Positions 5,118 through 45,848 of a stretch of DNA of 64,000 nucleotides are shown here, piece after piece. The stretch is from an uncultured Myxococcales bacterium (GTDB lineage: Bacteria > Myxococcota_A > Polyangia > JAAYKL01). How positions within the stretch are numbered: the stretch's first letter is position 1; each line of letters starts with the position of its first letter. The position numbers and the translations under genes are program-made. Location of the stretch: the NCBI GenBank assembly GCA_964458775.1, contig CAYWLQ010000009.1, forward strand, positions 3,077 to 67,076, in the 5' to 3' direction. The notes under the pieces are model-generated. The model ran no database searches. It was not told the origin of the DNA and saw nothing but the letters and a program-made list of their open reading frames with translations.

Positions 5118-6431
5118 ATGGATATAAGCGTATTTGGACTAGGATATGTAGGCGTCGTGAGCATGGCTTGTTTGGCTTCCAGAGGACATCGAATGATAGG
5201 TGTCGATGTCAATTCAACAAAAATCGATTTGATCAACGACGGGAAGTGCCCGATCGTGGAAAAGGATCTTCCTGAGCTTTTGTTGCTGGGAAAGCAAAAA
5301 GGGCTCATTTCAGCAACAAACAGCGCTGAAAAAGCTATTGCCGAATCAGTGTTGTCTATTATTTGTGTCGGTACTCCCAGTAGGGCAAACGGCAGCCTTA
5401 ATACATCATATCTGGAGAACGTATGTAAAGATATCGCCTTATGCCTGAAAAACAAGGGAGCAGAACATATCCTTGTTTTTCGCAGCACCATGCTGCCGGG
5501 GACGGCGATTGATACAGTCATCCCGCTCCTTGAAAAACATTCCGGTTTGACCGAAGGAAAAGATTTTCACGTTGTCTTTAATCCGGAATTCCTTCGGGAA
5601 GCCACCGCAGTTTTCGATTTCAACAATCCGCCCAAAACCGTAGTGGGCGGAAGAAATCCAGCCATTGTGCTGAAAGTGCTGGATGTCTATCAAGGCATTC
5701 CCGGGCCGATGATCGGCACCACTTTAGAAGCGGCTGAAATGGTCAAGTATCTGGACAACAATTTTCATGCGTTAAAAATTACGTTTGCAAATGAAGTCGG
5801 CCATATTTGCAAAAAGCTGAATATTGACAGTCATAAAGTAATGGAAATCTTTTTACAGGATACCAAGCTGAACATCTCAAGTTACTACCTGTGGCCGGGT
5901 TTTGCTTTCGGCGGATCTTGTCTTCCCAAAGACCTCAGAGCTGTCACCTACTTGTCAAAAATGCTCGACCTGGAAACACCTATGCTCAATTCGATGATGA
6001 TAAGCAACCAGGCCCAAATTCTTGCCGTAATCAAACGCGTAATCGCTCACGGTAAAAAGAAAATCGGAATCGCCGGTTTTAGTTTCAAAGCCGGGACCGA
6101 CGATCTGCGTGAAAGTCCGATGATTGAGGTAATTGAAACATTATTGGGAAAGGGATACGACCTCAAACTCTACGACAAGAATGTCAATCTTGCCAGATTG
6201 ATGGGAGCAAACAAGGACTACATCGAAAACCGAATTCCGCATATCGCTTCTCTGATGGTCAGCACACTGGATGAAATTATTGCAGACAGAGAGTTGATCA
6301 TCGTCGGTAATCGCGCTGAAGAATTTACCCGGTTGTTGACGGTGTGCAGAGAAGACCAAATTATTTTTGATTTGGTTAGAATTGGAAATCAAATCAACTC
6401 AAAGGCGGGATATGATGGAATTTGCTGGTAA
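5118..6431 (+). CDS. NDP-sugar dehydrogenase (UDP-glucose / UDP-ManNAc / GDP-mannose 6-dehydrogenase family)
   Basis: N-terminal Rossmann 'ISVFGLGYVGVV' and the catalytic-Cys motif 'GFAFGGSCLPKDLRA'. 437 aa. Confidence 0.85.
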   Translation: MDISVFGLGYVGVVSMACLASRGHRMIGVDVNSTKIDLINDGKCPIVEKDLPELLLLGKQKGLISATNSAEKAIAESVLSIICVGTPSRANGSLNTSYLENVCKDIALCLKNKGAEHILVFRSTMLPGTAIDTVIPLLEKHSGLTEGKDFHVVFNPEFLREATAVFDFNNPPKTVVGGRNPAIVLKVLDVYQGIPGPMIGTTLEAAEMVKYLDNNFHALKITFANEVGHICKKLNIDSHKVMEIFLQDTKLNISSYYLWPGFAFGGSCLPKDLRAVTYLSKMLDLETPMLNSMMISNQAQILAVIKRVIAHGKKKIGIAGFSFKAGTDDLRESPMIEVIETLLGKGYDLKLYDKNVNLARLMGANKDYIENRIPHIASLMVSTLDEIIADRELIIVGNRAEEFTRLLTVCREDQIIFDLVRIGNQINSKAGYDGICW

Positions 6432-19435: not shown

Positions 19436-21208
19436 CTACTTTTTTTCGTCAAACTTACCTTTAGTTTTTGGTGCATCAACACCGATCAGGGTTGCTCTGG
19501 CAGAGTCGATGGGGGGAATTGTGCTAATGGGTTCACGATTAGCGGCCGGCGGAACTGAGCTTGTTTTTCTTATCGAGTGTTGGACCATGGTGTCCTTCTT
19601 AATCGTTTTCTCCAATTCCTTCATCATAGCTTCCATCTGTTGAAATCGAATCTCCAGGGACAATAACCCTGCATTTGTACCGGTCTTGGTTTGGTCGTCT
19701 TTTTTGTTATTAGTGTCAAGCAACGGCTCTGTCTTACTAAGCTTTGATTCCAAGCCGCTTAGGCGTTCCTCAAAAGATGCGATAATCGTCTGGGGGCTCT
19801 TGGATAATGCTTTGGACTGTTGCTCCAATTCGGTTAATGCCGCTTCAAATGCTGAAAATCGTCGGTCCATTCCGGCCAAATGATTTTTTATCGACAACTG
19901 CGCTTTTTTCAATTCTTCTATTTCTTCCAGATTATCGCTTTTAGGAACAGCATCACTTGATGCAGATGTTCTTCCTTCAACGAGTTCGGAGGACCTTTGC
20001 TCCAGCTTTTTAACCCGGCTCTCAAGCTTCTTGAGGACTATCTGGGTATCCCACAAATCTTCGAATTGACCGGCAAAATTTTCACTGTGCTCTCCTGCAC
20101 CGACCGACCGTCCCAGCCGAGCTATCGCAATCTCAATATCGGCAAAGCGACTTTCGATTTCTAAAGACAGTGATTCCAACTCACCTTTTCCAATTCCGGA
20201 ATCGGGTTTGGGCGGTACGGAAGAAAGTCCGGTAATTTGACTTAAAAGATCATCAATACGGTCTTGAAAATAGAACTCCCGCTCAGTGCCCTTCCCTTCC
20301 ATATTGGTTATTGCGGCTTGGAGAGCATCAATCTGAGAATTTCTCTCATGAGCCGACAGACTAATCCTTTCCATGTTTACTTCGATCTGCCTATCAGCGG
20401 GTTGCATCTTTGCCGAGGGGTCTTTCAAAACAGCATAAATCTCGTCAATCGTACGATCGCTTTTTGCAGCAACCGCCTTAATCATAGATTTAAGTTCAGC
20501 GTAAAACTCGGCTCCCTCAGCTGCCACAGCGTTGATGAACAGTCCGTTATCCGTAACGGAATTTCGAGTTTCTTGCGTTAGCTCGTTCAGCTGCTTTTGA
20601 AGCTCTAGTATCATCTCAGACTGTCTAGATAGCCGGTCTGCAAACACATTTGATATTTTATGCTGCGATTCGACAGCTTCTACTGAAACATCGAAGCCTT
20701 TTGACAACTCCAACGGTGAGACACTGTTCGTCACCGGCATTTTCGAATTAGAGCTGACCTTTTGCGATGTTGGTTCGTAATTTTGTGCATCTGTTGCTTT
20801 GGGCGGAGGAGGGTAGCTGTCCGTGCTGTGCACACCGAACAACGGATTAACGAGCAGCTTTTGAGCCAGATTGACAACAGCCTCCACTTCACGACGGTCT
20901 ACGATATGTCGAATCCCTTCAAGGCTAACAACGGCTTCCTTTGAATTTGCCACAACAATTACCGGAATATTGGTGCGGGCCGCAAGGCGAAATAGCAGAT
21001 TGAATTCCCCTGCATTTTCATCAATTCCACAAATAACAAGAGCAGGAGAATTAAGATGAAAACGCCGCATCGCCGTCGAAAAATCTGATACCTTAACAAT
21101 CTTGAGCCGGCCTTCCTCCCGATTGTCTAATATAGTACAAAATTCGTCTGCATTAACCGCCAATACAGTGAGCACCTGACTCACATCTTCTTTATGGTTA
21201 CCATCCAT
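19436..21208 (-). CDS. FrzS/AglZ-like protein: N-terminal pseudo-receiver domain plus a long coiled coil
   Basis: The first 120 aa or so follow the REC pattern ('VLTVLAVNAD', 'PALVICGID', 'IPVIVVANS') with a degenerate acidic pocket. About 400 aa of heptad-rich, Glu/Leu/Lys/Ser-rich coiled coil follow. Confidence 0.4.
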   Translation of the reverse strand: MDGNHKEDVSQVLTVLAVNADEFCTILDNREEGRLKIVKVSDFSTAMRRFHLNSPALVICGIDENAGEFNLLFRLAARTNIPVIVVANSKEAVVSLEGIRHIVDRREVEAVVNLAQKLLVNPLFGVHSTDSYPPPPKATDAQNYEPTSQKVSSNSKMPVTNSVSPLELSKGFDVSVEAVESQHKISNVFADRLSRQSEMILELQKQLNELTQETRNSVTDNGLFINAVAAEGAEFYAELKSMIKAVAAKSDRTIDEIYAVLKDPSAKMQPADRQIEVNMERISLSAHERNSQIDALQAAITNMEGKGTEREFYFQDRIDDLLSQITGLSSVPPKPDSGIGKGELESLSLEIESRFADIEIAIARLGRSVGAGEHSENFAGQFEDLWDTQIVLKKLESRVKKLEQRSSELVEGRTSASSDAVPKSDNLEEIEELKKAQLSIKNHLAGMDRRFSAFEAALTELEQQSKALSKSPQTIIASFEERLSGLESKLSKTEPLLDTNNKKDDQTKTGTNAGLLSLEIRFQQMEAMMKELEKTIKKDTMVQHSIRKTSSVPPAANREPISTIPPIDSARATLIGVDAPKTKGKFDEKK

Positions 21209-22311: not shown

Positions 22312-24012
22312 TTACCATGGATGAACCTCGTCTATGATTCTAACAGGACGATCATCTTTTGTATTGGAGGCATTGTTCTTAGAATCATCTTTGGGCTTTG
22401 TATTCGGATCATCAGGTTTGGTTTGTGGTGTATTAACATGGGGACGCAATACGATTTTTTCGGAATGAGTGTTTGATGCGGGTTTTGACTTGTTGTCAGG
22501 TAATAATTGAACAACTAGTTTTGTATTCTTGTCAAATACTACATCTTTTCGAAAAACTATAAATCCCGAAGCGGTTATTTCTATAGAGTGTTTCTGCTGA
22601 TCGTACGGTACATGCAAATTTACGGATCCAAGAGGATTGAGAACACCGTCAATGGAGACTTGTGCATTGGGAGGCGATACATCAATTTCTAAAGCGACTG
22701 TTTGATTTGCAAAAGAAAGTGTCGCTTTTTCATTTTCAGTTTTTGTGTCCCTGCTATTTTTGTCAATAGTATTTGTATTATCCACAGAAGACGGACTCTT
22801 TTCATTAACAACACCTGTTTCAGCCGGAAGTGTTGTAACTAGGGGAGTTAAAGGTGTTTCTTTTTTGTCGGCTTGATTGTTCTGAACCAAGAGTTGGTAA
22901 GCTGCTATTGCCAAGATCATAGCTGCTATTGTCAGAGCGGCAATAATCACTCCAAATCCTCTGTTTTGTTTCGGTTTGCTGATAGTCTCTGTCAATTGCA
23001 GAGATGTATTGTCAGTCTGATAGTTTCCAGTTTGTAAATCAAAAGAAGAGCTAAGTGCAGAATCTCTAAAACGTGTTACTCCCAAACCGGTTTGGCAAGC
23101 TGTATTTGGTGAGAATTGATTAATAGCCCTCCTAAAAGAGGCAGCATCTGCAAATCTTTTGCCTGGATTTTTTTCAATGGCCTGCATTACAGCATCGGAT
23201 AATGCAGGCGGAATTGAGGGCACCAACTCACAAGGACTCGGAGGTGTCTCTCCGATAATCTTCAGAAGAAGCATTGTAAGTGCTTTTTCTTCAAAAGCAG
23301 TTTTACCTGTCAAAATTCTGTAGAGAATTAGTCCGACAGAGAAGATGTCGGTATGGTGAGTAATATTTGTTTCACCGCGAGCCTGTTCGGGTGACATATA
23401 TGAAGGAGTTCCTAGAAGTTCGCCGGTACGTGTCAAACCTTCATGTTCACTCTCTTCTTCTTTAATTTTAGAAATTCCAAAATCTACAAGTTTAACATAG
23501 TCTTCTGCATCTCGATTACAGACCAAAAAGATATTCGCCGGTTTTAGGTCACGATGAATAATCCCCTTTGAATGAGCAGCTTCCAATGCTGATAATACTT
23601 GTATAGTAATATGACAAGCTCTTTCGGGATCAAGTCGCTTTCCATCTGCCAGACATGTTGCTAGATCTATCCCATCAAGATATTCCATAACAATATAGAG
23701 TTCGCCGCTTTCAGTGAATCCCATATCTGTGACATCAACGATGTGATCATGACCGATTGCAGAGGCAGCTTGTGCTTCACGACGAAAACGCTCCGCAACA
23801 CCTGGGTCATGCGCATACTCTGCATGTAGTAGTTTTATGGCTAGTCTACGATTTATAAGTTTGTGTTTAGCCTCATAGACTACCCCCATGCCGCCTCGTC
23901 CGAGCATACGAACAAGCTCATATTTTTTTTCAAGAATTCGACCAATATAGGGGTCGGCCAGTTGTGTATCTCTCAATCGAACATCTCCGCTGAATCCATT
24001 AAATGGTCGCAA
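22312..24012 (-). CDS. Hanks-type Ser/Thr protein kinase with TM segment and C-terminal PEGA domain
   Basis: 'LGRGGMGVVYEA', 'AIK', 'HRDLKPANIFL', 'DFGISK' and 'SPEQ'. TM 'IIAALTIAAMILAIAAY'. C-terminal 'VSIDGVLNPLGSVNLHVPYDQQKHSIEITASGF' is a PEGA fold. Confidence 0.9.
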   Translation of the reverse strand: MRPFNGFSGDVRLRDTQLADPYIGRILEKKYELVRMLGRGGMGVVYEAKHKLINRRLAIKLLHAEYAHDPGVAERFRREAQAASAIGHDHIVDVTDMGFTESGELYIVMEYLDGIDLATCLADGKRLDPERACHITIQVLSALEAAHSKGIIHRDLKPANIFLVCNRDAEDYVKLVDFGISKIKEEESEHEGLTRTGELLGTPSYMSPEQARGETNITHHTDIFSVGLILYRILTGKTAFEEKALTMLLLKIIGETPPSPCELVPSIPPALSDAVMQAIEKNPGKRFADAASFRRAINQFSPNTACQTGLGVTRFRDSALSSSFDLQTGNYQTDNTSLQLTETISKPKQNRGFGVIIAALTIAAMILAIAAYQLLVQNNQADKKETPLTPLVTTLPAETGVVNEKSPSSVDNTNTIDKNSRDTKTENEKATLSFANQTVALEIDVSPPNAQVSIDGVLNPLGSVNLHVPYDQQKHSIEITASGFIVFRKDVVFDKNTKLVVQLLPDNKSKPASNTHSEKIVLRPHVNTPQTKPDDPNTKPKDDSKNNASNTKDDRPVRIIDEVHPW

Positions 24013-25472
24013 TATGCACAGCTTACAGTATTCTCTCCTCGTTTTATCATCATAGGCTCAACAGATTCATTATGCGATACATGAGTAATGCATAGGCTGT
24101 TGGGGCAAGATATTTGAGGAATTCCTGTCATTCGACAGGGAAGTCGAAGTTGCATTTTGCGAACCACCTGTCCGCTTTTTATTATGTTAATGCGACATCC
24201 TGGTGAAATCGCTGCAACAGATCTCATTTCATCTTCTGTAAGTTCTCGACCTTCAATCATCAGTATTCCTTTAACTGCATCGGGTCTTCTAATCGATTTT
24301 ACAGTTCCTGCGCGATAAATATCACGTCGTTCACGCACCTGAAGCAGTCTGATCAACAACTCTTCCTGATAGGCTTTTACATGGTCAATAACTACTCCAT
24401 AATCACGGATTGGTCGTATTGAGAACTCAGTTCTGACCGGTTTTACAACCACCGGGAGGTCCTCAATAAATTCTGCTTCTTCTCCCGCCTCTTTCCATCT
24501 TTCGCCGTTATAGTCAGAACCCAATAGACCTAGAGATAGGGCCAATTCTACAAGTCGTGTCGGAACACCGTTTCCGGCCTGTCGCTTATAGATTGACTTG
24601 GGATGACTGTCCAATGCAGATGTTATTGAAGGCCATGTTTTGTCAATTGGTAAGGGATGCATAAGGCCGAATGATTCCCTTGTTGTTTTCATCATCTTTG
24701 GTGTAAATTCACAATCCGCCTTCGCTCGGTCAAGTTCTTGTTGGTCAGGTATGCGTTCTTTCTGAATTCGAGTTTGATAAAGAATATCAACTTTATTTGC
24801 CATTTCTGCTAAGGACCCATATATCTTTATCTCTACTCCGGCGTTTCTTGCCATTTCTGCAAATATTGGAGGAAGTGACAGATTTGTTGGAGAAAACATA
24901 TGCAACCGTACTCCCGAAAACTTAGTAAGTGCGTTTACAAGGGAATGAACAGTTCTTCCGTATTTCAAATCCCCAGCCACACCTATATCAAAATCCTCCA
25001 ATCGACCGAGGTGCTCCCTAATGGTAAACAAATCCAAAATTGTTTGTGTCGGATGTTCATGCTTGCCGTCACCGGCGTTGAAAACCGGAATCTCAAGATG
25101 ACGAGCTGCCAACCTTGCGGATCCGTCTAAATGATGACGAATGATTAGCACATCACAATTGTAAGCTTCATACATATCTAAGGTATGCCGAAGAGACTCG
25201 CCCTTTTGTACGGAAGTTCCCTCCGTACTCGAAAATCCGGTAACGCTTAAACCTAGGCGCATTGCTGCTATTTCAAAGCTGGTTCTGGTTCGCGTTGAAT
25301 TTTCATAGAACAAAAGAGCTGCAATAAGATCTTTGTTAGCAGCTAAACGATATATATCAGTATTTCTGGCAAAAAGGGCGGTTTTCATAATCTGAGCTTG
25401 GTCCATAATATAAAGAAGCTCTTCTTTAGTAAATTGATGAATGTCTGTAAAATCTCTGTTTATGAACTGCAT
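23973..25472 (-). CDS. pyrB: aspartate carbamoyltransferase, fused catalytic (PyrB) and regulatory (PyrI) chains
   Basis: PyrB motifs 'STRTR', 'HPTQ' and 'HPLP'. The C-terminal 150 aa or so carry PyrI features ('YGVVIDHV', the Zn site 'CPNSLCITH...CAYCDH'). Confidence 0.85.
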   Translation of the reverse strand: MQFINRDFTDIHQFTKEELLYIMDQAQIMKTALFARNTDIYRLAANKDLIAALLFYENSTRTRTSFEIAAMRLGLSVTGFSSTEGTSVQKGESLRHTLDMYEAYNCDVLIIRHHLDGSARLAARHLEIPVFNAGDGKHEHPTQTILDLFTIREHLGRLEDFDIGVAGDLKYGRTVHSLVNALTKFSGVRLHMFSPTNLSLPPIFAEMARNAGVEIKIYGSLAEMANKVDILYQTRIQKERIPDQQELDRAKADCEFTPKMMKTTRESFGLMHPLPIDKTWPSITSALDSHPKSIYKRQAGNGVPTRLVELALSLGLLGSDYNGERWKEAGEEAEFIEDLPVVVKPVRTEFSIRPIRDYGVVIDHVKAYQEELLIRLLQVRERRDIYRAGTVKSIRRPDAVKGILMIEGRELTEDEMRSVAAISPGCRINIIKSGQVVRKMQLRLPCRMTGIPQISCPNSLCITHVSHNESVEPMMIKRGENTVSCAYCDHLMDSAEMFD

Positions 25473-26113
25473 AGATATCCTTTTTGCTCACAAGTTGCTT
25501 ATATATGGAAAACCGAGGTATATGGAGACGGTCATTGAATTTTGCCCGCTCTTCTTTACCTTAAGTAGTTTTATCAGGAAATCTTAGAACGCCCAATCAT
25601 AAGAAATCGAAAAATAAATTATATGCCTTTTTGTTTAGGTGTTAGTTATAAACACAAGACAAACAATGCAAAAATTGTCCTTGGATTGTCATTGGCATGT
25701 GGTGTAAAAAAAACCTAGACTGTGAATAACTTTTATTCATTGACTTGGCTGCGTTTCTCATATATTAGCCTCATTCTTATTTTTCAAGTATGCAAAGGAC
25801 ACCCTTGTTGTCAAATTATCGATAATATTCAGTATGTTACGCTTGTTGTCTGTTTTTGATAACAAACTTTAAGGTTAACAACATTGTTTCAGCCTCCCTG
25901 TGGATAACCTGTGGACAAATCGTGTAAAAGGTCATTTTATTGAATCATCACGGATATACACAAAATCGAGTATGTCCAATTCATTGCGGTTAACTTACTG
26001 TTGGTGATAGACTGCTATTGTAATGCTGATGACAGTCAAAATAGATTATTCTTTCACTCGACAATTTGCGATTGTTCATTCATTTTTCAACATAACGTTT
26101 TTGAGGTTGAAAT

Positions 26114-26776
26114 TTGAATAAACTCGTAAAAACTCTGTCTACTGTAAAGAAGGAAGCACCTGAACAAACCACAGATGCTTTAACTGATTTGAAGCTTGTG
26201 GAGCGTTCGAGAAAAGGTGATGACACAGCGTTTGCAGAACTGGTCGTGCGATATCAGAATAAAGTATATTCGATCGCATTAGGAATGATAAAGAATAGAG
26301 AAGATGCCATGGATATAACACAAGATGCTTTTGTAAAGGTCCACCGGTATCTAGATAATTTTCAAGGAAACTCAAGCTTTTATACCTGGCTCTATAGAAT
26401 TGTAATTAATCTATGCATAGATCACATTCGCAAAGAAGGTCGAAGAGCAAATACTGATTTTGATGAGAAGCATTTGTATTCAAGTGAAACTAATGAAAAC
26501 AATGATATTCTGCCTCATAATTCAGACAATAATCCATCCAAACTTCTTGGAAGGAAAGAAATGGCTTTAAGAATTCAGGATGCTGTAAATGATCTTCCAG
26601 AATATCATAGAGCAGTCATAGTAATGAGAGAGATAGAGGGACTTTCCTACACTGAAATGGCAAAAACAATGAAGGTATCAAAAGGGACAATAATGTCGCG
26701 ACTGCACCATGCCCGTCAAAAACTGAAAAAATCCCTGGAACCGTATTTGGAGGGGGAGTTGCTGATACAAGAGTAG
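26114..26776 (+). CDS. ECF (group 4) sigma-70 family sigma factor
   Basis: Region 2 'YQNKVYSIALGMIKNREDAMDITQDAFVKVHRYLDNF...FYTWLYRIVINLCIDHIRK' and region 4 'LSYTEMAKTMKVSKGTIMSRLHHARQKLKK'. TTG start. Confidence 0.85.
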   Translation: MNKLVKTLSTVKKEAPEQTTDALTDLKLVERSRKGDDTAFAELVVRYQNKVYSIALGMIKNREDAMDITQDAFVKVHRYLDNFQGNSSFYTWLYRIVINLCIDHIRKEGRRANTDFDEKHLYSSETNENNDILPHNSDNNPSKLLGRKEMALRIQDAVNDLPEYHRAVIVMREIEGLSYTEMAKTMKVSKGTIMSRLHHARQKLKKSLEPYLEGELLIQE

Positions 26777-26785
26777 GAGCGTGAA

Positions 26786-27328
26786 ATGAAAAACATAACA
26801 CAGAAGCTGATTGAACAATATGCAGATGGAGAATTGCCTTTGAATAAGGCAAAAACAGTAAAAACGCTCCTTGATAACTCCAGTAATGTAGATTTGTCCG
26901 TTGAGGAAATCAAACGTATAGGTTCTTTATTAAGGCTAATGAATGAAGAAACCGCAAAAGATGTATCGTTTGACGGATTGGCTGATAAGGTTCTTGCAGA
27001 GATTAAAACCGATAGAACCTCATTATCATATGCGGAGAAATTAAAGGTTTGGTTATCTGAAGTTATAGAAAATAGACGTGGTATATGGATTCCGGCTTCC
27101 GCTATCGCATGTGCTGCATGTTTGGCCGCTGTCTTGCTTCCGTCATTGTCTCCGTCAACAACAGCTAATTCCCATACGTTTGATACAAATATTGTTTTGC
27201 ACTCGACAGTTTCCGGAAAAGGATCTCATATAGCAACTGTGGATTTCGGTATGGAGTCCGGATTACAATATGCGGTTGAAGATGGAATGGGAAATCGCGT
27301 AGGTGTGGTTTGGATATTGGAGAAATAG
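26786..27328 (+). CDS. membrane-anchored anti-sigma factor (putative)
   Basis: Lies immediately downstream of the ECF sigma, 10 nt after its stop. An N-terminal anti-sigma-like helix region is followed by a single TM ('IACAACLAAVLLPSL') and a small periplasmic tail. Confidence 0.5.
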   Translation: MKNITQKLIEQYADGELPLNKAKTVKTLLDNSSNVDLSVEEIKRIGSLLRLMNEETAKDVSFDGLADKVLAEIKTDRTSLSYAEKLKVWLSEVIENRRGIWIPASAIACAACLAAVLLPSLSPSTTANSHTFDTNIVLHSTVSGKGSHIATVDFGMESGLQYAVEDGMGNRVGVVWILEK

Positions 27329-27356
27329 ATATTAATTTAGGCGATTTGGGAAAAAA

Positions 27357-27842
27357 ATGGATGCTGTAAAAATAAGAAAAATATTTGTCATTGTACAAGC
27401 ATTGTCATTAATGGCAGTTTTCCATATCGCGGATGCAGCGATTGCTGCTACAAAATGCGAGATTCTCTCAATAAAAGCTTCTTCAGACGGCAAGGGTGTT
27501 GATCCGGCGGTAGCAAGATATGCCAAAATTTTCAAAAACGAACCCTTTGCTAAGTTTAACAGCTTTGCATTGATTGATCGACAACCGGTTGATATTGAGC
27601 TTAATGTTCCTAAAAATCTTAAGTTACCGGAAAATATTTCTGCATCTTTAAAACTTAACAAGTATTCTGATGGTAAATTTGATTTAACTTTAGCACTTTC
27701 ACGTTTGTCTAAATCTCCTGTTAACATTAACGGAATTGCCTCTCCGGGAAGTCCCATATTTGCTGCCGGAATGAAGAGCGATAACGGTATATGGATTTTC
27801 GGCGTTGTTTGTGATGGACCTGAAGTCGGCATAACTCCTTGA
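27357..27842 (+). CDS. secreted hypothetical protein
   Basis: N-terminal signal peptide and no recognisable motif. Co-oriented with the sigma/anti-sigma pair. Confidence 0.3.
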   Translation: MDAVKIRKIFVIVQALSLMAVFHIADAAIAATKCEILSIKASSDGKGVDPAVARYAKIFKNEPFAKFNSFALIDRQPVDIELNVPKNLKLPENISASLKLNKYSDGKFDLTLALSRLSKSPVNINGIASPGSPIFAAGMKSDNGIWIFGVVCDGPEVGITP

Positions 27843-27905
27843 TTTGTTATATAAGCAGTTCAAAACTTGACTCTCTTTCATTAACCTTCGATTCTGACCT
27901 TTAGA

Positions 27906-29231
27906 ATGATGTTGCCGTTAAAATTGCGGACACCTTTGACTAATATTGTTTGTTTCATTCTTTTGACAGGATCTGTTTGTTTCTCACAAACGGTTCTGTC
28001 AGACAGTTCACTTGATTTACAAAGCAGTTTGGAGATTGGCATTGTCTCCTTAGATGAAGATATCTTCGTCTTAACTAATATTGAACAACATATATCGGTT
28101 AAAGGTTTTTCAGTTGTGTTTTCGGGTCCTTTTAGATTACGAATTGTTGATCACGAACCAAGCGATTTAGGTGTCCTTCGAAGTCAAGATTGGGATGAAC
28201 CTTCTGATTTTGCCAGGATTGTTCCCGTTCTGTCTTTTATGAGAAAATTTGAAAGCGGTTTGATAGATTTTAGTGCAGGGCAATTAAATGGAGTATCAAT
28301 TGGTAACGAAACTATTGTATCCAAATACTTCAACTCTGTTGATATGGATAGATATAAGGGGGGTATTCATCTTCAAGGAGAATACAGATTTAACGGTGCG
28401 GAATTACTTGTAGATGATATTGTATCTCCCAATATTGGTGCTTTGCGTTTGTATCTTGCTCCAATTTCTTGGTTTTCAGACACAGAATGGTCTGACAGAC
28501 TGCAACTGTGTTTTTTGTCAGGAATTGATTTTAGATCTCCGCTTAGAGCCTATGACAACGGGATACACACTTTTTTTACCGGCGGCGGAGAAATAGATCT
28601 GCGTCTGATAGAGCGAGAACGATTATTGCTTGGAAACTATTTTGTAACAGCTGCTATGAACGGAGATATTGGTCTTCATTTAGGTATGACGCTGAATTGG
28701 AGCATTCTTTCTTCCGACAAACTCGGTCTGTTTTTAAAAGGAGAATACCGATATTCCGGACCAAAGTATTTTCCTGCATTATTCAATCCTTTTTATGACT
28801 ATAATAGATTTCATTTTACTAAAACCGATTCTCCTCCAAATGCTACCTTTGCTGATCATGCAGTTTTTGGATCCGGGGAATCTTTTGCCCATGGATTTAT
28901 GGCAGAGATTTTGTTTGAGTGGAGAAACAAGCTTCAAATTAGTGCAAGATATGACACAGCAGGAAGAGATCGTCTTCATTGGATAATGTTTCAATTGGGA
29001 GTTTTTCCACTAAAAGGATATCAAATAAAGGGATTTTTTGCCGGACAGAGCATTGAGGGATCTCAATGGATGTTTAGTGAAAATCCGATATTTGGAATTG
29101 AGGCAAGGGGGAAAATATGGAAACCTATTGATTTGTTTTTCTTTTTCACTAGACGATGGCGAAACATTCCCGAAGATAACAGATCGGCAAACGAATTGGG
29201 CGGCGGAATAGGATGTTATGTGTCATATTAA
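27906..29231 (+). CDS. secreted / outer-membrane hypothetical protein (possible beta-barrel)
   Basis: Signal peptide and beta-rich composition. 441 aa. Confidence 0.3.
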   Translation: MMLPLKLRTPLTNIVCFILLTGSVCFSQTVLSDSSLDLQSSLEIGIVSLDEDIFVLTNIEQHISVKGFSVVFSGPFRLRIVDHEPSDLGVLRSQDWDEPSDFARIVPVLSFMRKFESGLIDFSAGQLNGVSIGNETIVSKYFNSVDMDRYKGGIHLQGEYRFNGAELLVDDIVSPNIGALRLYLAPISWFSDTEWSDRLQLCFLSGIDFRSPLRAYDNGIHTFFTGGGEIDLRLIERERLLLGNYFVTAAMNGDIGLHLGMTLNWSILSSDKLGLFLKGEYRYSGPKYFPALFNPFYDYNRFHFTKTDSPPNATFADHAVFGSGESFAHGFMAEILFEWRNKLQISARYDTAGRDRLHWIMFQLGVFPLKGYQIKGFFAGQSIEGSQWMFSENPIFGIEARGKIWKPIDLFFFFTRRWRNIPEDNRSANELGGGIGCYVSY

Positions 29232-29351
29232 TATAATAGGGAGACTGCGGCAGTTGCTGTCGGAGATTTTCTTTATGAAAATGTGCATTTACATATTGCA
29301 CTGCAACTGTTAGCATGAAACTCAGGTATCTGAACCTGAAGAGGTACACCA

Positions 29352-31136
29352 GTGGATAGATGTCCTCATTGCAGTCAGAGTCATGCCGGCACTAATCATT
29401 TCTGTCCTGTGACGGGATTGCCTGTCGCACTAGGGCCGAGATTGTTGTCGGCGAAATTGCTGGATAAGTACACTGTTATCAACATTCTAGGAGAAGGCCC
29501 GATTGGCATCGTTCTTGAAGTTGAGGATATTGTTACTCGTATACGCTACGCAGCCAAGCTTATTCATCCTCGTTTTACCAAGGGTCCTAACATAGCCGAA
29601 AACCTTATTAAGGATATAAAACAAGTCCAGTCCGTTTCTTGTGACAATATTGCACAAATAGTCAAGGTGGGAAGGGATTCAGGCGCTGCCGTAGTGGTTA
29701 TTCGAGAACTTATGATAGGAGAGTGTCTTTCATCCAGAATAGAGAATATCGGTCAATTTGCAGTTAAGCCTGCAATCGAAATAACCCGTGAAATATTGAC
29801 AGCATTACATGCTATTCATCAAATAGGTGTATTGAACTTGGATCTTTCACCATCCGACGTCTTTTTAATATCGGGAGCAAAAGGTACTCAAGTCAAATTG
29901 GTGGATATTGGAGAGCGCCATGTTAAAGCTTCTCTTCCAAGCGATTTCTCCGAAGCGGTAGGCTACAAATATTTTGCACCTGAACAACTTGATAAAAGTC
30001 GTCAACCCAACTTCCGTTCGGATATTTACGCAGCGGGAATGATTCTCTATCAGATGCTGACAGGAACTGTACCTGTCGGTGACCCTATTCCGCCAAAAGA
30101 TTGTAGAAAAGATATCTCTGATGATCTTTCTCAAGCGGTACTCAAAGCGATATCTTCGGTTCCCGGTCAGAGACATCAGACCGCACAAGAATTTATACGC
30201 GATTTGGATGCTGTGCTTGTAGAAACTTCAAAAAGCGGAAATACAGGTTCTGTATCTAAGATACCTGCTGTTATAGTTCGAGACAATTCTTCTTTGAATG
30301 CAAAACCTGTTTCAGATGCTGTTGAAACTGAACCTGTTGCAAAAGCAACATCATCAGAAGAAGTCGTTGTTCCAAAACAAAAAAACCAATCAGAAACCGC
30401 TTCCGTAATTGTAGAGATGCCGGAGATAGAAATTCCTCGTTCTCCAACAAAAACAATAGCCGTAATTGCTTTGTTGTTACTCCTAGCGGGCGTTGCCGCT
30501 TGGTTTTTTGTAATAAAAGACTTTGACACATCAACATCTGAGCCATCGTTGCCTGAGGTTCAAATAACAATAGAGGTATCTCCTTCTGATGCTACGGTCT
30601 TTGCGGACGGAAAGAAAGTTTCCGGTTCTCCGGCGGTTTTGCGGCTTCCGGCAGATAACAGTCTTCATACAATAGCAGTTAAGGCAGATGGATATGAGTC
30701 TATTGAGCGCGATGTTCGCCTGGATCGATCAAAAACAGTGAAAATTGAACTTATGGAAATAATACAACCTGATGAACCTTCTGACTCCAATATTGCCGCT
30801 GCTCCTATTTTGACAGAGGCTCGAAACCTTGACGCAGAAAAGGGTACAATCGAATCTGATACAGCTGACATCAAGAATGTCAGCAAAGAGGAAAAAGCCG
30901 TCAAAGCCGAACTTTCAAACAAAAGTTCGGTTGGAACGAGATCTGCCTCAACAGGAAAAAAAGCGGACACAAAGAAAACAACAGTTTCAACCAAACCTGC
31001 TGTTGACTCAGTCGTAAAATCAAAAAAGACATCAGTAGAAAAACCGAGTAATCCTGTTGCTAAAGTACCTAATGATGAGGAACCGCCCAAAACAAAGAAT
31101 TTGGAGGGTTTTCGAACAGTCAATCCGTTTGAGTAA
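29352..31136 (+). CDS. zinc-ribbon, degenerate Hanks-kinase (probable pseudokinase), TM and PEGA-domain protein with a Lys-rich tail
   Basis: N-terminal 'CPHC...FCPVTG' zinc ribbon. The kinase-like domain has 'GEGPIGIV' and 'AAK', but the catalytic loop reads 'NLDLSPSD' (not HRDLKPxN), DFG reads 'DIG', and APE reads 'APEQ'. TM 'IAVIALLLLLAGVAAWFFVI'. PEGA 'ITIEVSPSDATVFADGKKV...HTIAVKADGY'. Lys/Thr/Pro-rich C-terminal tail. Confidence 0.65.
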   Translation: MDRCPHCSQSHAGTNHFCPVTGLPVALGPRLLSAKLLDKYTVINILGEGPIGIVLEVEDIVTRIRYAAKLIHPRFTKGPNIAENLIKDIKQVQSVSCDNIAQIVKVGRDSGAAVVVIRELMIGECLSSRIENIGQFAVKPAIEITREILTALHAIHQIGVLNLDLSPSDVFLISGAKGTQVKLVDIGERHVKASLPSDFSEAVGYKYFAPEQLDKSRQPNFRSDIYAAGMILYQMLTGTVPVGDPIPPKDCRKDISDDLSQAVLKAISSVPGQRHQTAQEFIRDLDAVLVETSKSGNTGSVSKIPAVIVRDNSSLNAKPVSDAVETEPVAKATSSEEVVVPKQKNQSETASVIVEMPEIEIPRSPTKTIAVIALLLLLAGVAAWFFVIKDFDTSTSEPSLPEVQITIEVSPSDATVFADGKKVSGSPAVLRLPADNSLHTIAVKADGYESIERDVRLDRSKTVKIELMEIIQPDEPSDSNIAAAPILTEARNLDAEKGTIESDTADIKNVSKEEKAVKAELSNKSSVGTRSASTGKKADTKKTTVSTKPAVDSVVKSKKTSVEKPSNPVAKVPNDEEPPKTKNLEGFRTVNPFE

Positions 31137-31186
31137 AATGATCTTGTGCAAGAATGTAGAAAAAAATTGATGTGAGAGGAGAGTAA

Positions 31187-32305
31187 ATGAAGCGTATCGT
31201 TCCTATTATCATCCTGTGTATCGGTGTCGTCGCTGCTTCTCCGGCACTTTGTCAGAAAAAAAAAGCTAAGGTACTGTTTGACGCCGGAGTAACTGCTCTT
31301 GAACAGAAAGACTATTCCAAAGCATTGCAATCATTTCAGGATGCATATTCACTAAGTCCTCATTGGGCTGTTTTAGCTCATATCGGCACATGTTATGCCA
31401 GATTGGATCAACCGGAAAAAGCAATACAAAGTTTTCAAACCTATCTGGAAGAAGGAGGCAAACAAATTCCCCCTGATGAAAGAAAAACAGCCGAGGAAAT
31501 GATAGTACAACAAAAGCGTAAACTCGGTACTTTAGTTTTGTCTGTGGGGAAAGACGGTGTTGAAGCACTTATAGATGGGGAATCTATCGGTAAATCACCA
31601 TTCAATGATATTGTTCTGTCTCCCGGCTTGCATGAGATTGCTGTAATCTTTGGACCGAGTGATATTGTAAAGCGTAAAATTGACTTGCTTTCGGGACAGG
31701 AGTTTATTCTTCGCATTGAGCAAGAAAAGCATGTTTCCACAGCACCCGAGACGACTTTGGTACAAGAATCAGAATCGAAACCCAAAAAATCCGAAACAAA
31801 AACATCTCAAATGGAAGAGACAAATCCGGTTTTTAGTGCTCCGCCTTCTTCTTCTGAAAAGGTAAAAGGAAGTGCTGTTCCATTCGGATTATCTCTGGGG
31901 CTGACAATAGCCGACCTTATAGCAACGGGTGTAAGTTGGGGACTATTTTCTTATTATAACTCTTCCGCAAAGAACTATAAAAACGATTTGGATTTGCAGG
32001 TTGAAATTTACGGTTGGGATTTTACTTGGGAAGAAACCTGTTCGCAGATTAAGGTTTCGACAAAATCAGAAGAGTATTACTGTAATACAGAACTGAATCG
32101 AAGAGATTTTGTAAAGAAAGCAGATACCTGGAAAATTGTAGGCATTGCCACCTCAGCAGCGTTGGGTGTAACCCTTACAACTACTCTAATATTCGGTCTC
32201 AATCGTCATTGGTTCGGCGGAAGCAAAAACAATGAAGCTGCACTTTCTTTTATTCCCTTTGTAAGCCCTAAAGAAAACGGTTTTGTTTTGAGTTTATCAT
32301 TCTAA
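31187..32305 (+). CDS. TPR-repeat, PEGA-domain, C-terminal membrane-anchored protein
   Basis: Signal peptide. TPR-like 'DYSKALQSFQDAYSLSP...AHIGTCYARLDQPEKAIQSFQTYL'. PEGA 'LVLSVGKDGVEALIDGESIGKSPF...HEIAVIFG'. Two C-terminal TM helices. Confidence 0.55.
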   Translation: MKRIVPIIILCIGVVAASPALCQKKKAKVLFDAGVTALEQKDYSKALQSFQDAYSLSPHWAVLAHIGTCYARLDQPEKAIQSFQTYLEEGGKQIPPDERKTAEEMIVQQKRKLGTLVLSVGKDGVEALIDGESIGKSPFNDIVLSPGLHEIAVIFGPSDIVKRKIDLLSGQEFILRIEQEKHVSTAPETTLVQESESKPKKSETKTSQMEETNPVFSAPPSSSEKVKGSAVPFGLSLGLTIADLIATGVSWGLFSYYNSSAKNYKNDLDLQVEIYGWDFTWEETCSQIKVSTKSEEYYCNTELNRRDFVKKADTWKIVGIATSAALGVTLTTTLIFGLNRHWFGGSKNNEAALSFIPFVSPKENGFVLSLSF

Positions 32306-32420: not shown

Positions 32421-32912
32421 ATGACACAAATTACTTTCAAAGGAAATCCGTTAAATACAGTAGGAACCTTGCCTAACAAGGGAAACGTTGCTCCCAAATT
32501 TTCTCTTGTCGGTCTTGACCTTAGAGATATGGAACTAAAAGATTTTTCAGGGAAGAAGGTTCTAAATATTTTTCCAAGCATTGATACTCCTGTATGTGCA
32601 ACATCGGTTCGCAAATTCAACGAACATGCTGCTTCGAAACCGGGTGTTGTTGTACTAAATATCTCAGCAGATCTTCCTTTTGCTCAACAACGTTTTTGCG
32701 GTGCAGAAGGAATAGACAAAGTTGTAATGCTGTCTTCTTTTCGTTCTAACTTTGCAACTGACTACGGTCTACAAATAGCTGACGGTCCCTTAGCAGGGCT
32801 TTGTTCCAGAGCGGTAATCGTTCTCGATGAACAGAACCGAGTGGTTTACACCCAGCAAGTAAAAGAAATAGCCGAAGAACCTGACTACGAAGCAGCTTTA
32901 GCAGTGTTATAG
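32421..32912 (+). CDS. tpx: thiol peroxidase (atypical 2-Cys peroxiredoxin Tpx)
   Basis: 'FPSIDTPVCATSVRKFN' peroxidatic-Cys motif and a resolving Cys. 163 aa. AAGGAGG RBS 10 nt upstream. Confidence 0.9.
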   Translation: MTQITFKGNPLNTVGTLPNKGNVAPKFSLVGLDLRDMELKDFSGKKVLNIFPSIDTPVCATSVRKFNEHAASKPGVVVLNISADLPFAQQRFCGAEGIDKVVMLSSFRSNFATDYGLQIADGPLAGLCSRAVIVLDEQNRVVYTQQVKEIAEEPDYEAALAVL

Positions 32913-40579: not shown

Positions 40580-43144
40580 ATGGCAGAAAAAAACAACAAC
40601 ATGTCTTTTTCTTTTTCTGATGCTGAAATGCCTGTTCGTTTTGGACGATATATGCTGCTTCGCAGAAAAAGTTTGGAATCAATAGGTGAACACTTTTTGG
40701 CATTGTGGGGTGTTGATGAAGGAATAGATCAACTGCGTATGGTTCGTGCTATCTATCGATCAGTTGCAGAAGACGAAGACTTTGTGGCTATGTTTACAGA
40801 AGAAGCTCGTTCCTTATCACAACTATCAAGCTCCAATGTTGTACGAATTGTTGAGGTCGGAAGCGAAAGCGGAATTCCGTTTGTTGCTCAAGAGCATGTA
40901 GAAGGTATTACGCTTGAACGCCTGCTTCAGATTTCGGAAGAGCGCGGGATACGATGCCATTGGGAACTTGCTGCACACGTAGCTGCTGAAATGCTTCGCG
41001 GGCTTGATCATGTTCATCGTCGTGAAGATGTTAGAGGTATTCCGTTGGCAATGCGTCACGGAGATATAAGACCTCCAAATGTGCTGATTTCCTTTAATGG
41101 TGAGGTTAAACTTACCAATTTCAGCTCTTCTTTGTATTATATGGTTCATAAAGGCACAAACACTCGATTCGAAACCGAACGCGGAATGTATGCATCGCCG
41201 GAAGGACGTCGTTCGGCCTCAAAAGGGGCAACCGCAGCCGGTGATTTATGGGGAGTATCTGTTTCTCTTCTCGTTATGCTTGAAGGATTGTCGGCACTAA
41301 AACAAATCAACTCATTTGTTGCAGACGGCGAGTCTTTAACCTCTGTAGCATACAGGATAAGAGAAATACCCAAACGTCTCAATCTTCTCTTGGCTAGAGC
41401 CCTTCATATAGATCCGCGCCATCGATTTGATACTGCATCTGCAATGAGAGATGCTTTGTTAGAAATTCTTAAAGAAAACGGTGTCGGTCATCCTCCTGAT
41501 GATCTATCTGCCTTTGTTAAGGATCTGGGTTCTCAAGAAAGAGAAGAAGAAGAAAAAATAGTTAGAACCATGTTAGGAAGGGAAGCGAGTATGTCTCTTG
41601 ATGAATTGTCTGATTCATCAAAAATTGCGCCCGGAACTGTATTAGACGGCAAATATCATTTGTTAAGACTCATAGGCGAAGGTGGTATGGGGCAAGTCTT
41701 TGAAGCGGAGCATTTGGGTATAGAAAAGCGTCTGGCAGTTAAAGTTCTTCACGAACGTGTACTTCACGATCAAGTCGCGGTGGAGCGTTTTCGCCGAGAA
41801 GCTAGAATTCTAGGCGGACTTGGTCATCCCAATATTGTCAGCGTTACTGACTACGGAGTTACTGTTGAAGGAAACTACTACTTGGCAATGGAGCTTCTTG
41901 ACGGAAAGAGCCTTGGTTCAAAATTAGAAAAAAACGAGGCAATATCTCCTGTAGAAATTATGGATATAATGATTGCGGTTTGTAACGGTCTTACTGCTGC
42001 TCATGCAGCCGGAGTAGTGCATCGTGACCTTAAGCCGGACAACATATTTCTAACAAGAACAGGTCCTCGAATTGTCGATTTTGGCATAGCCAAACGGACA
42101 GATTTCGATGATGAAGAGCGCTCGCTAACGAAAACCGGCAATATCTGCGGCACAGTGGAATATATCTCACCTGAACACATCGGAGGTCAAAATACAGATC
42201 ATAGGGTAGATATATACACAGCAGGGCTAATTATCTACGAAGTGCTTACAGGTACTACTCCTTTTAAGGGGCGCAATATTGCTGAGACGATGAACCGAAT
42301 TATGACAGACAAGATTACCGCTCCAAGAAAACGCACAGGCAACAAACTAATTCCTAAACCGTTGGAGGATATTTGTCTTAAAGCAATGTCTCGCGATCCG
42401 GCAAAGCGTTATCAGTCTGCTGAAGAAATGCGATTGGCATTAGAAGCTGTTAGAGCTGAAGTATTTCAGATGACAATGATTGAGTCTTTGGGAAATTCAA
42501 AAAAAACCAAAACTCTCCATACTGTTGCATTATTAGGATTGTCAGGTGCTATGTTGTTGTCTGCAATACTGATATATTTTTTTAAACTTAACTCGGTCAA
42601 TGAAAACAAGGTATCAGTTACTCTACCATTGTCTTCGGAAATAAAAAAAGCCGAACCCTTACCCTCAATTCATGACAATGATGATAGTCATGTTGAAGAA
42701 AAACTGACAAAATCTGAGAATAATATCGCCGAAAACACAACAGAAGACACAGCTTCATTTTTCAATTCTGTCAATGAAGGAGAAATAACCTTAGAAGAGC
42801 TCTTAAGCCAAGGAGAAGCAGCCTTGAAGAGACTTGATCTGGCCGGTGCTGCTTATCACTTTAAGATGGCGTCAGAGAGAGATCCTCGAAATCCACGAGG
42901 TTGGTACGGACAAGGAAGAGTTTGGTTTGAACGGAACGACCCTCAAAGAGCCGTCATAATGATTCAGAAAGCACTAAAATTGGATCCAGGTAGATATAAA
43001 TGGCGTGTTTTTTTAGGAAAAATCTACATGTCAATTGGAGACAGAGAGCGAGCAGTTCGAGAATGGAAAAGAGTTCTGCTGACACGCCCCAACCATTCAG
43101 AAACTTTACAATTGCTTTCAGCTTCAGGTGCACCGTCTGACTAG
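40580..43144 (+). CDS. tandem pseudokinase plus active Hanks Ser/Thr kinase, with TM and C-terminal TPR repeats
   Basis: Domain 1 is degenerate ('MRHGDIRPPNVLI', 'KLTNFSSS', no Gly loop). Domain 2 is canonical ('GEGGMGQVFEA', 'AVK', 'HRDLKPDNIFL', 'DFGIAK', 'SPEH'). TM 'LLGLSGAMLLSAILIYFF'. C-terminal TPR ('AAYHFKMASERDPRNPRGWYGQGRVWFERNDPQRAV...'). Confidence 0.85.
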   Translation: MAEKNNNMSFSFSDAEMPVRFGRYMLLRRKSLESIGEHFLALWGVDEGIDQLRMVRAIYRSVAEDEDFVAMFTEEARSLSQLSSSNVVRIVEVGSESGIPFVAQEHVEGITLERLLQISEERGIRCHWELAAHVAAEMLRGLDHVHRREDVRGIPLAMRHGDIRPPNVLISFNGEVKLTNFSSSLYYMVHKGTNTRFETERGMYASPEGRRSASKGATAAGDLWGVSVSLLVMLEGLSALKQINSFVADGESLTSVAYRIREIPKRLNLLLARALHIDPRHRFDTASAMRDALLEILKENGVGHPPDDLSAFVKDLGSQEREEEEKIVRTMLGREASMSLDELSDSSKIAPGTVLDGKYHLLRLIGEGGMGQVFEAEHLGIEKRLAVKVLHERVLHDQVAVERFRREARILGGLGHPNIVSVTDYGVTVEGNYYLAMELLDGKSLGSKLEKNEAISPVEIMDIMIAVCNGLTAAHAAGVVHRDLKPDNIFLTRTGPRIVDFGIAKRTDFDDEERSLTKTGNICGTVEYISPEHIGGQNTDHRVDIYTAGLIIYEVLTGTTPFKGRNIAETMNRIMTDKITAPRKRTGNKLIPKPLEDICLKAMSRDPAKRYQSAEEMRLALEAVRAEVFQMTMIESLGNSKKTKTLHTVALLGLSGAMLLSAILIYFFKLNSVNENKVSVTLPLSSEIKKAEPLPSIHDNDDSHVEEKLTKSENNIAENTTEDTASFFNSVNEGEITLEELLSQGEAALKRLDLAGAAYHFKMASERDPRNPRGWYGQGRVWFERNDPQRAVIMIQKALKLDPGRYKWRVFLGKIYMSIGDRERAVREWKRVLLTRPNHSETLQLLSASGAPSD

Positions 43145-45771: not shown

Positions 45772-45848
<77 letters not shown>

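Follow-up and report, generated by a model that had tools for sequence, protein, structure and literature searches.

A conserved six-gene block of uncultured Myxococcota combining a predicted RpoE-like sigma/anti-sigma pair with an outer-membrane barrel and a kinase-like PEGA protein: a candidate envelope signalling module

How might the state of the cell envelope be reported to a sigma factor whose neighbouring genes include members of three families without annotation? This question is raised by six consecutive genes in a stretch of 64,000 nucleotides from an uncultured Myxococcales bacterium (contig CAYWLQ010000009.1, positions 3,077 to 67,076), which we will call the window. Pairs made of an extracytoplasmic function (ECF) sigma factor and its anti-sigma are the commonest bacterial route of signalling across the envelope, and to our knowledge nearly all of the inputs to them that are understood take the form of proteolytic cascades, TonB-dependent transducers or, where there is no anti-sigma, direct sigma-factor phosphorylation. 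The six-gene block joins a predicted RpoE-like sigma pair (sig and asig) to an uncharacterised periplasmic protein (p3), a private outer-membrane barrel (p4), a kinase-like receptor with a tail that would span the periplasm (psk) and a TPR-PEGA protein (tpr). It is of a known kind, the ECF envelope-signalling module, and what differs is its uncharacterised accessory families. The reading that we prefer, and to which we give an even chance, is that of an envelope signalling module made of two adjacent, separately promoted units, in which a trans-envelope sensor controls the anti-sigma.

The evidence that carries this reading is first of all the conservation of the block. Loci were collected by a genome scan with a p4 profile and by context look-ups of the members of the p4 and psk families, and the window proteins were then compared by BLAST with the open reading frames (ORFs) of these loci. 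The order of the six genes is identical in 12 loci besides the window (13 in total), one of the 12 ending inside psk. This collinear arrangement, sig-asig-p3-p4-psk-tpr, or type A, is that of the window, L001 (identical to L002), L003, L004, L005, L006, L008, L010, L021, L022, L024, the P0015 locus and L007; psk is fragmented by frameshifts in L024, the P0015 locus is represented by a gene table only, and it is the contig of L007 that stops within psk. Two other arrangements were found: p4-psk-tpr with the sigma module missing upstream (type B: L009 and L025, the latter identical to L026), and psk-tpr alone (type C: L020). Identity to the window proteins amounts to 56-78% for sig, 31-53% for asig, 39-56% for p3, 34-47% for p4, 38-51% for psk and 29-66% for tpr. 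The GC content of the window is 41%, compared with 51-69% in the other loci of type A and 51-70% in the related loci as a whole, which makes the window organism an unusually AT-rich member of this group.

The flanks of the block do not follow this conservation. When the window was compared with five loci by reciprocal BLAST over 10 kb on either side, only the six block genes were common, besides a generic similarity between kinase domains. At least four flanking contexts can be told apart, namely those of the window itself, of L003, of L022, and of the P0015 locus as compared with the L001 type; the truly independent ones number about four because many high-GC loci share a wider synteny. That the block is kept while its flanks vary goes beyond chance. 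A comparative search for conserved co-occurrence, which the preliminary description of this DNA had proposed as a check, therefore finds the six genes together across diverged Myxococcota, with changing flanks.

The block is also rare. The p4 family consists of 22 proteins among 5.8 billion, with a sharp boundary, and the psk family of 21 proteins at E<=1e-77, followed by a gap down to generic kinases at 1e-21, so that the two families match in size, rarity and taxonomic range. The loci with the block all come from metagenomes or metagenome-assembled genomes; in the genome records among them, the taxon given is Myxococcota, Polyangia, Myxococcales, Deltaproteobacteria or Proteobacteria. The block is a rare and lineage-restricted one, so far found only in uncultured Myxococcota. 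Near the distant p4 homologues (22-29% identity, L011-L019), no partner genes were found.

Within the window, all six genes lie on the forward strand, and the gaps from sig to tpr measure, in order, 9, 28, 63, 120 and 50 nt. The preliminary description had already reported six co-oriented genes with short gaps, which the ORF listing bears out together with the coordinates (Table 1). Its calls of sig as an ECF sigma factor, of tpr as a TPR-PEGA protein and of p3 and p4 as secreted proteins were likewise upheld by Pfam and NCBIfam profiles, hydropathy and orthologues. In the Pfam scan, the asig, p3 and p4 proteins of the window gave zero matches, and no protease gene was found inside the six-gene block. 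Signal-type hydrophobic segments were found by a hydropathy scan at the N-termini of p3, p4 and tpr.

The sigma factor is the best defined of the six products. It matches Sigma70_r2 (72.5 bits), r4_2 (53.2 bits) and Sigma70_ECF (51.9 bits) in Pfam, and it scores 118.6 bits against TIGR02937, for which the cut-off is 42.9. With sigma2 and sigma4 domains only and a score above the family cut-off, it is an ECF (group 4) member of the sigma-70 family. Its score against the RpoE equivalog TIGR02939, 159.7 bits, is under the cut-off of 236.15, and by this measure it is a relative and not an orthologue. The nearest solved structures are those of AlgU, E. coli sigmaE and SigW (E 1e-37 to 1e-28). Sig also has a conserved N-terminal extension of about 25 amino acids, which includes a conserved L-S, and the start codon is followed by AAT AAA in 9 loci. 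In every orthologue of the alignment, region sigma2.2 is the canonical acidic DxxDxxQD, in the form DAMDITQD.

The asig gene begins 9 nt past sig and its product has a single transmembrane helix at residues 100-118 according to the hydropathy scan. Among its orthologues, 5 of 9 match Pfam zf-HC2 (best E 4.1e-6), a match that the window protein itself does not give, and the orthologue profile has weak matches to the anti-sigma domains of RsiW and DdvA (E about 0.05). The N-terminal helix contains a conserved LxxYxDGEL, a motif typical of anti-sigma domains. The zinc-ligand motif HxxxCxxC is not visible in the alignment, the corresponding positions being without His or Cys in the window protein and in most orthologues. 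The periplasmic tail is of about 60 amino acids and has a conserved end, GVVWIxE. Position, transmembrane helix and LxxYxDGEL fit a single-pass, non-zinc class-I anti-sigma factor, and the earlier call of a membrane anti-sigma agrees with the helix, with the place of the gene directly after sig and with the zf-HC2 matches of the orthologues.

The two secreted products are where this analysis goes further than the previous one, which had left their function blank: p4 is now recognised as an outer-membrane beta-barrel and p3 as a secreted beta protein. The first assignment rests on a signal peptide, a closed antiparallel barrel and an invariant C-terminal Tyr. p3 is a small, beta-rich member of an uncharacterised family with two invariant Cys, which probably form a disulfide; no confident structural relative of it was found, and no relationship to RseB or MucB could be detected. 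A secretin domain, judged by the Pfam Secretin signature or by a structural match to the secretin core, is at most a tentative assignment for p3. On the opposite strand, an antisense ORF of 166 amino acids covers p3 entirely. It is most likely a shadow ORF, because the conservation that it seems to show in L001 reflects that of p3 on the other strand.

With psk we come to the most unusual component of the block. From its N-terminus, the protein consists of a Cys/His cluster (conserved as C4, H6, C7, H11, H16 and C18), a kinase domain, a transmembrane helix at residues 369-387, a PEGA domain, a spacer of 123 amino acids and a C-terminal GFRTVNPFE. The matches to Pkinase PF00069 (92.1 bits, cut-off 31.7) and to PEGA PF08308 (30.1 bits, cut-off 20.8) indicate a Hanks-type Ser/Thr kinase fold in a protein predicted to be a bitopic one of the inner membrane, with its PEGA domain in the periplasm. 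A conserved SVIV(D/E)MPE motif stands immediately before the helix. The tail beyond the PEGA domain, of 70-123 amino acids, changes from an acidic first half to a basic second half in all complete members. Several orthologues have plain (EP)n repeats there and then (KP)n repeats, and in the window the tail is rich in Ser, Thr and Lys instead of being strictly EP/KP. The C-terminal end is GF..[ST]NP[FY][GE], again in every complete member.

The preliminary description had called psk a zinc-ribbon pseudokinase with a transmembrane helix and a PEGA domain. The helix, the PEGA domain and the N-terminal Cys/His cluster stand; the word pseudokinase does not. The usual rule for a pseudokinase is the loss of at least one of the beta3 Lys, the catalytic-loop Asp and the DFG Asp, and psk does not qualify because all three are retained. 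Where the sequences cover them, the AAK Lys is found in 20/20 members, the (N/D)LD Asp in 20/20 and the DxG Asp in 21/21; the Gly loop (GEGPxGIV), the acidic alphaC residue and the APE motif (20/21) are retained as well. The catalytic loop is another matter, HRDLKPxN being replaced in all members by (N/D)LDLSPxD, that is HRD by NLD, Lys by Ser and Asn by Asp. The invariance of these substitutions points to a selected functional variant and not to decay. On this motif pattern, the kinase domain is best described as atypical rather than demonstrably dead.

The last product, tpr, matches TPR repeats in Pfam, and its PEGA match in the window (14.3 bits) is under the cut-off of 20.8; a PEGA domain is found in 9/9 orthologues (best E 4.3e-17), with a second one in some of them. 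The protein has a signal peptide with an AxA site. In its 145 C-terminal amino acids, two Gly/Ala-rich, moderately hydrophobic segments flank a 60-aa loop that contains two invariant Cys and a basic cluster, and a short strand-like tail with an invariant terminal Phe follows the second segment. The invariant Phe and the alternating last strands led us to consider a small outer-membrane barrel for this region; a helical hairpin fits better, since the two segments are long and Gly/Ala-rich and the basic residues are on the loop side.

A kinase-like gene in the vicinity of an ECF sigma gene brings to mind a known mode of activation, in which the sigma factor is switched on by direct phosphorylation, here from psk or from the active kinase encoded at 22312. 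A Hanks-type kinase gene adjoining an ECF sigma gene is indeed a hallmark of ECF43 (EcfP-PknT, EcfK-PknS) and of other groups such as ECF267 (PMC7826278, PMC13147305). In ECF43, the acidic motif of sigma2.2 is replaced by uncharged residues and a conserved Thr (PMC13147305), whereas here it is kept as DAMDITQD in every orthologue; kinase-associated ECF groups are typically without anti-sigma factors (PMC7826278), whereas here a predicted cognate one is present. Moreover, the catalytic loop of psk departs from the canonical form in all members, psk has its own promoter, and the kinase at 22312 does not accompany the block in other loci. We therefore hold an activation of the ECF43 kind to be very improbable, and the sigma2.2 motif by itself largely refutes it. 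Among the kinase-associated groups, ECF267 is the sole described one with both an anti-sigma (with TPR) and a kinase (PMC7826278); the anti-sigma of the present block is not FecR-like.

How the block is transcribed was addressed through its promoters. About 100 nt upstream of sig lies a sigma70-type promoter, P1, whose consensus TTGCGG-N17/18-TA(G/A)A(G/C)T is found at the same position in the type-A loci whose upstream DNA was read (9 loci by pattern match, with small variants recognised by eye in L006, L021 and L022; L024 was left out). It was also the only bipartite motif to rise above shuffled controls when k-mers were enumerated upstream of sig in 8 non-redundant loci. In L008 and L010, ThyX is preceded by a promoter that is also of this shape (TTGCGG-N17-TAGAGT). 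P1 therefore looks like a promoter of the housekeeping type, and the housekeeping promoters of this lineage are suggested to have TTGCGG commonly as a variant -35 element. P1 was considered as an ECF promoter itself and ruled out on this shared shape and on its sigma70-like -10 hexamer.

A second promoter, P2, is located between p4 and psk. It is a sigma70-type promoter with an extended -10, TTTACA-N17-TAnCAT with a TG extension, and it occurs exactly once, at a matching place, in each of 13 of the 15 loci for which DNA was available, including loci of types B and C, among them L025 and L020, which are without the sigma module. In both P1 and P2, the -10 hexamer is of the sigma70 type, with A at position 2 and T at position 6. 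Transcription is predicted to start near 26020 from P1 and near 29323 from P2. A weak terminator-like hairpin with a T-rich tail, given by a consensus scan only, directly follows p4 in the window and is not clearly conserved in other loci. The conservation of P2 makes psk-tpr an at least partly independent transcription unit, and independent transcription of the genes is one of the outcomes that the preliminary description had named as refuting its reading. The block looks like two units, P1 followed by sig-asig-p3-p4 and P2 followed by psk-tpr, and is better described as two linked units than as a single operon.

It could also be that p3, p4, psk and tpr are outputs, the sigma factor serving to express a local regulon, for example an outer-membrane channel induced by stress and a complex that braces the envelope. 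In ECF operons, target genes are often found after the sigma/anti-sigma pair, and p3 and p4 follow asig at gaps of only 28 and 63 nt, which speaks for this explanation; an overview of such operons can be found in PMC7826278. The promoters speak against it. Both have the TA...T form of a sigma70-like -10, P1 has the shape of the ThyX promoter, and neither an RpoE-type GGAAC-N16-TCxxA nor a CGT-type promoter is present in the 400 nt upstream of sig in 9 loci. Across the whole block, GGAAC patterns and directed RpoE-like and AAC..CGT patterns gave none that was conserved in position, so the ECF autoregulatory motif that the preliminary description expected upstream of 26114 or of the other genes was not found. 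The architecture of psk, with its kinase-like domain, transmembrane helix and ectodomain, is moreover that of a receptor. We consider it quite unlikely that the four accessory proteins are mere outputs.

A few features of the region upstream of sig should be mentioned here. An Rfam search found no RNA family in its 640 nt. About 70 nt upstream of P1, the window has a tandem motif, CCTGTGGATAA / CCTGTGGACAA (DnaA-box-like TGTGGATAA). L003 has this motif ahead of its P1 as well, and in L022 it takes the form of a palindrome, TATCCACAGACCTGTGGATAA; in the high-GC loci, a divergent gene for a Crp-family regulator takes the place of the CCTGTGGATAA/CCTGTGGACAA motif, which may serve some regulator as its operator.

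The division into two units brings us to the explanation that competes most seriously with ours. The block may consist of two adjacent systems that are separate in their function, an ordinary RpoE-like operon for envelope stress (sig-asig-p3, perhaps with p4) and a p4-psk-tpr complex or Ser/Thr signalling unit, whose adjacency is inherited. In most relatives, the psk-tpr unit would then be paired not with the sigma factor but with a neighbouring kinase: in L001, L004, L005, L006, L008, L010, L020, L021, L024 and the P0015 locus, tpr is immediately followed by the convergent gene of a cytoplasmic Hanks-type kinase of about 565 amino acids, whose C-terminal half is a long coiled coil and which lacks a transmembrane helix and a PEGA domain. 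Pairs of a receptor-like atypical kinase and an active soluble one are common, and this coiled-coil kinase is a possible catalytic partner of psk. The conservation of P2 is in favour of two systems, and so are the loci in which the block is split, L009 and L025 with p4-psk-tpr only and L020 with psk-tpr standing by itself beside the coiled-coil kinase.

Several of these observations weigh directly against the single module that we prefer. P2 is conserved and near the sigma70 consensus, which means that psk-tpr may be transcribed apart from the sigma genes. A search of the block for ECF-type promoters found none, and hence neither autoregulation nor a control of the accessory genes by sig is visible. 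L009 and L025 carry their three genes without sigma, anti-sigma or p3 in the available DNA, and L020 carries only two, so the genes of the block can lie at separate places, or else some of its parts can function where there is no sigma module. Every relative is a metagenome-assembled genome or a metagenome contig. Finally, many high-GC loci share a Crp-family gene upstream and, downstream, the coiled-coil kinase, after which come a 138-aa gene, a gene for a TPR protein, a 95-aa gene and lastly ThyX; with such a wider synteny in most of them, the conservation of the block could partly be inherited gene order.

What argues against two systems is that rearranged flanks have not separated the six genes in the window, in L003 and L022, or in the P0015 locus, and that in the first three of these the coiled-coil kinase is missing beside the block. 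The equal size and taxonomic range of the two rare families also count against independent systems. p4 is on the sigma side of P2, inside the transcription unit of the sigma factor, yet it accompanies psk-tpr in the split loci L009 and L025; this links the barrel with the kinase pair and makes p4 a bridge between the two halves. Two separate systems side by side are thus a possibility that we take seriously and that stays clearly short of an even chance; if they are what the block contains, it would be an ordinary operon for envelope stress, with an unrelated complex of the envelope next to it.

If we return to the single module, the following scheme can be drawn from what was observed, namely the gene content, the folds of the domains, the conserved gene order, P1 and P2, and the motifs of the kinase domain. 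In the first unit, an RpoE/AlgU/SigW-like sigma factor would be held at the inner membrane by asig, with p3 and p4 produced together with the sigma pair. In the second, psk would be a receptor-like protein of the inner membrane, with a TonB-like spacer long enough to span the periplasm, and tpr a periplasmic TPR-PEGA protein anchored by its C-terminal hydrophobic hairpin. Most economically, a trans-envelope sensor would be formed by the outer-membrane protein p4, the periplasmic p3, and psk and tpr, which would reach from the inner towards the outer membrane; its input would be the state of the outer membrane or of the periplasm. Input from PEGA proteins to the sigma factor, which the preliminary description had proposed, is plausible, and it is gene order only that links the kinase pair to sig.

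From this sensor, two routes could lead to the anti-sigma. AlgU, sigmaE and SigW are controlled by proteolysis, and in a periplasmic route p3 or p4 would act on the conserved tail of asig, after which regulated proteolysis would take place as in these closest relatives. In a cytoplasmic route, the kinase-like domain of psk would act on asig; a precedent for a kinase acting on an anti-sigma, as cited in PMC13147305, is PknB, which phosphorylates RshA and thereby frees SigH. By either route, the sigma factor would be released. The signal, the contacts between the proteins, the route to asig and any phosphorylation by psk are what we infer here.

The comparison with known systems shows what is familiar in this scheme and what is not. 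The nearest in sigma sequence are RpoE-RseA-RseB of E. coli, AlgU-MucA-MucB of Pseudomonas and SigW-RsiW of Bacillus. They are alike in the order of sigma, single-pass anti-sigma and secreted periplasmic protein, and the N-terminus of asig resembles the RsiW domain; they differ in that here a barrel and a kinase/TPR-PEGA pair are attached and no RpoE-type promoter is found upstream. The SigX-CfrX-CmpX-OprF system of Pseudomonas (ECF102) has a sigma operon with a putative anti-sigma, an inner-membrane sensor and a porin, under multilayer control (PMC7826278). There the accessory elements are a mechanosensitive channel and OprF, whereas here they are psk with its atypical kinase domain, tpr, p3 and p4, and no homology between the two sets was detected.

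The logic of FecI-FecR-FecA and of the Bacteroidetes SusC-type systems is also similar, an ECF sigma, an inner-membrane regulator and an outer-membrane barrel being encoded together; however, the present block has no TonB-dependent transducer and no FecR domain, and its sigma factor is RpoE-like and not FecI-like. The TonB rod bridges the inner and outer membranes, and the tail of psk is likewise acidic then basic and Pro-rich, with (EP)n then (KP)n in several orthologues. It differs from TonB in having no Pfam TonB_C match, only a conserved peptide of about 10 residues, and no ExbB/ExbD genes are found in the block. One can imagine a kinase-coupled cell-surface signalling without a TonB-dependent transducer, in which psk, extended through the periplasm by its TonB-like spacer, would dock its C-terminal peptide on p4, aided by tpr and p3, and the state of the outer membrane would be passed on to sig through phosphorylation or scaffolding of the anti-sigma. 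We regard this more specific form of the scheme as unlikely; if true, it would be a new wiring of receptors of the Ser/Thr-kinase type to ECF sigma factors and a first role for PEGA.

In the literature searched, no paper describes an ECF sigma factor together with PEGA and a kinase or pseudokinase, which agrees with the earlier statement that this combination is not a described signalling system, and none of the searched papers that mention PEGA assigns a function to this domain. If the parts of the block do work together, they would represent a new design of input to an ECF sigma factor, and they would give a first functional context to PEGA and a context to three protein families without annotation. 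Because every known carrier is an uncultured myxobacterium, the immediate value of the block is that of a well-defined candidate for heterologous reconstitution.

The surroundings of the block remain to be described, with the coordinates of all features given in Table 1. Upstream, the kinase at 22312 has canonical catalytic motifs, a transmembrane helix and a PEGA domain (22.2 bits, cut-off 20.8), and it is separated from the block by a gene for a PyrB-PyrI fusion, in which the catalytic domains of aspartate carbamoyltransferase are joined to the regulatory chain. The preliminary description had counted it, with psk and tpr, as one of three PEGA proteins flanking the sigma operon. Psk and tpr are conserved parts of the block; this kinase is a neighbour in the present window only, and it was dropped as a component of the system, given that the kinases adjacent to the block elsewhere have unrelated, coiled-coil C-terminal halves. 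The longest ORF of the kinase, with a TTG start, overlaps the 3' end of the fusion ORF by 40 nt.

Table 1. Coordinates of the features discussed, in the window and in related loci
Feature	Locus	Coordinates	Strand	Description
sig	window	26114-26776	+	ECF sigma (ORF listing)
asig	window	26786-27328	+	anti-sigma (ORF listing)
p3	window	27357-27842	+	secreted protein (ORF listing)
p4	window	27906-29231	+	outer-membrane barrel (ORF listing)
psk	window	29352-31136	+	kinase-like, PEGA (ORF listing)
tpr	window	31187-32305	+	TPR-PEGA protein (ORF listing)
P1	window	25984..26013	+	sigma70-type promoter, TTGCGG-N18-TAGACT
P2	window	29288..29316	+	sigma70-type promoter, extended -10, TTTACA-N17-TAGCAT, spacer ending TGT
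Terminator-like hairpin	window	29248..29272	+	weak, with T-rich tail
Tandem motif	window	25897-25918	+	upstream of P1
Antisense ORF	window	27332-27832	-	probable shadow ORF
Kinase	window	22312-24012	-	PEGA kinase
PyrB-PyrI fusion	window	23973-25472	-	499-aa ORF; OTCace_N, OTCace, PyrI, PyrI_C
Kinase	window	40580-43144	+	Hanks-type kinase ORF, 854 aa
tRNA gene	window	45777-45848	-	
Thiol peroxidase/redoxin	window	32421-32912	+	co-oriented, 115 nt past tpr
Tandem motif	L003	~1640-1670		upstream of P1
Palindrome	L022	~5290-5320		
ThyX promoter	L008	~19625-19653	-	P1 shape
ThyX promoter	L010	~19746-19774	-	P1 shape
Coiled-coil kinase	L001	14716-16419	-	cytoplasmic Hanks type
Genes after tpr	L025	12738-16490	+	451-aa protein, trypsin-like serine protease, transpeptidase
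FHA-GGDEF gene	L001	4096-4986	-	
FHA-GGDEF gene	L021	1861-2754	-	
FHA-GGDEF gene	L022	3451-4233	-	
FHA-GGDEF gene	L024	2279-3202	-	

In several relatives, genes for an FHA-GGDEF protein and a PatA-type response regulator are found a few kb upstream of the block. FHA domains bind phosphothreonine, and the FHA-GGDEF protein may be a further component of this neighbourhood with a link to Ser/Thr kinases; a BLAST of the L001 and L022 ORFs against the window found no equivalent of it there. Downstream of tpr in L025, the co-oriented genes for a 451-aa protein, a trypsin-like serine protease and a (penicillin-binding) transpeptidase hint at a cell-wall or periplasmic-protease context. The window has, farther downstream, another Hanks-type kinase ORF and a tRNA gene. 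Right after its tpr comes a gene for a thiol peroxidase/redoxin, and a redoxin gene is also found near the block in the P0015 locus, where it is upstream.

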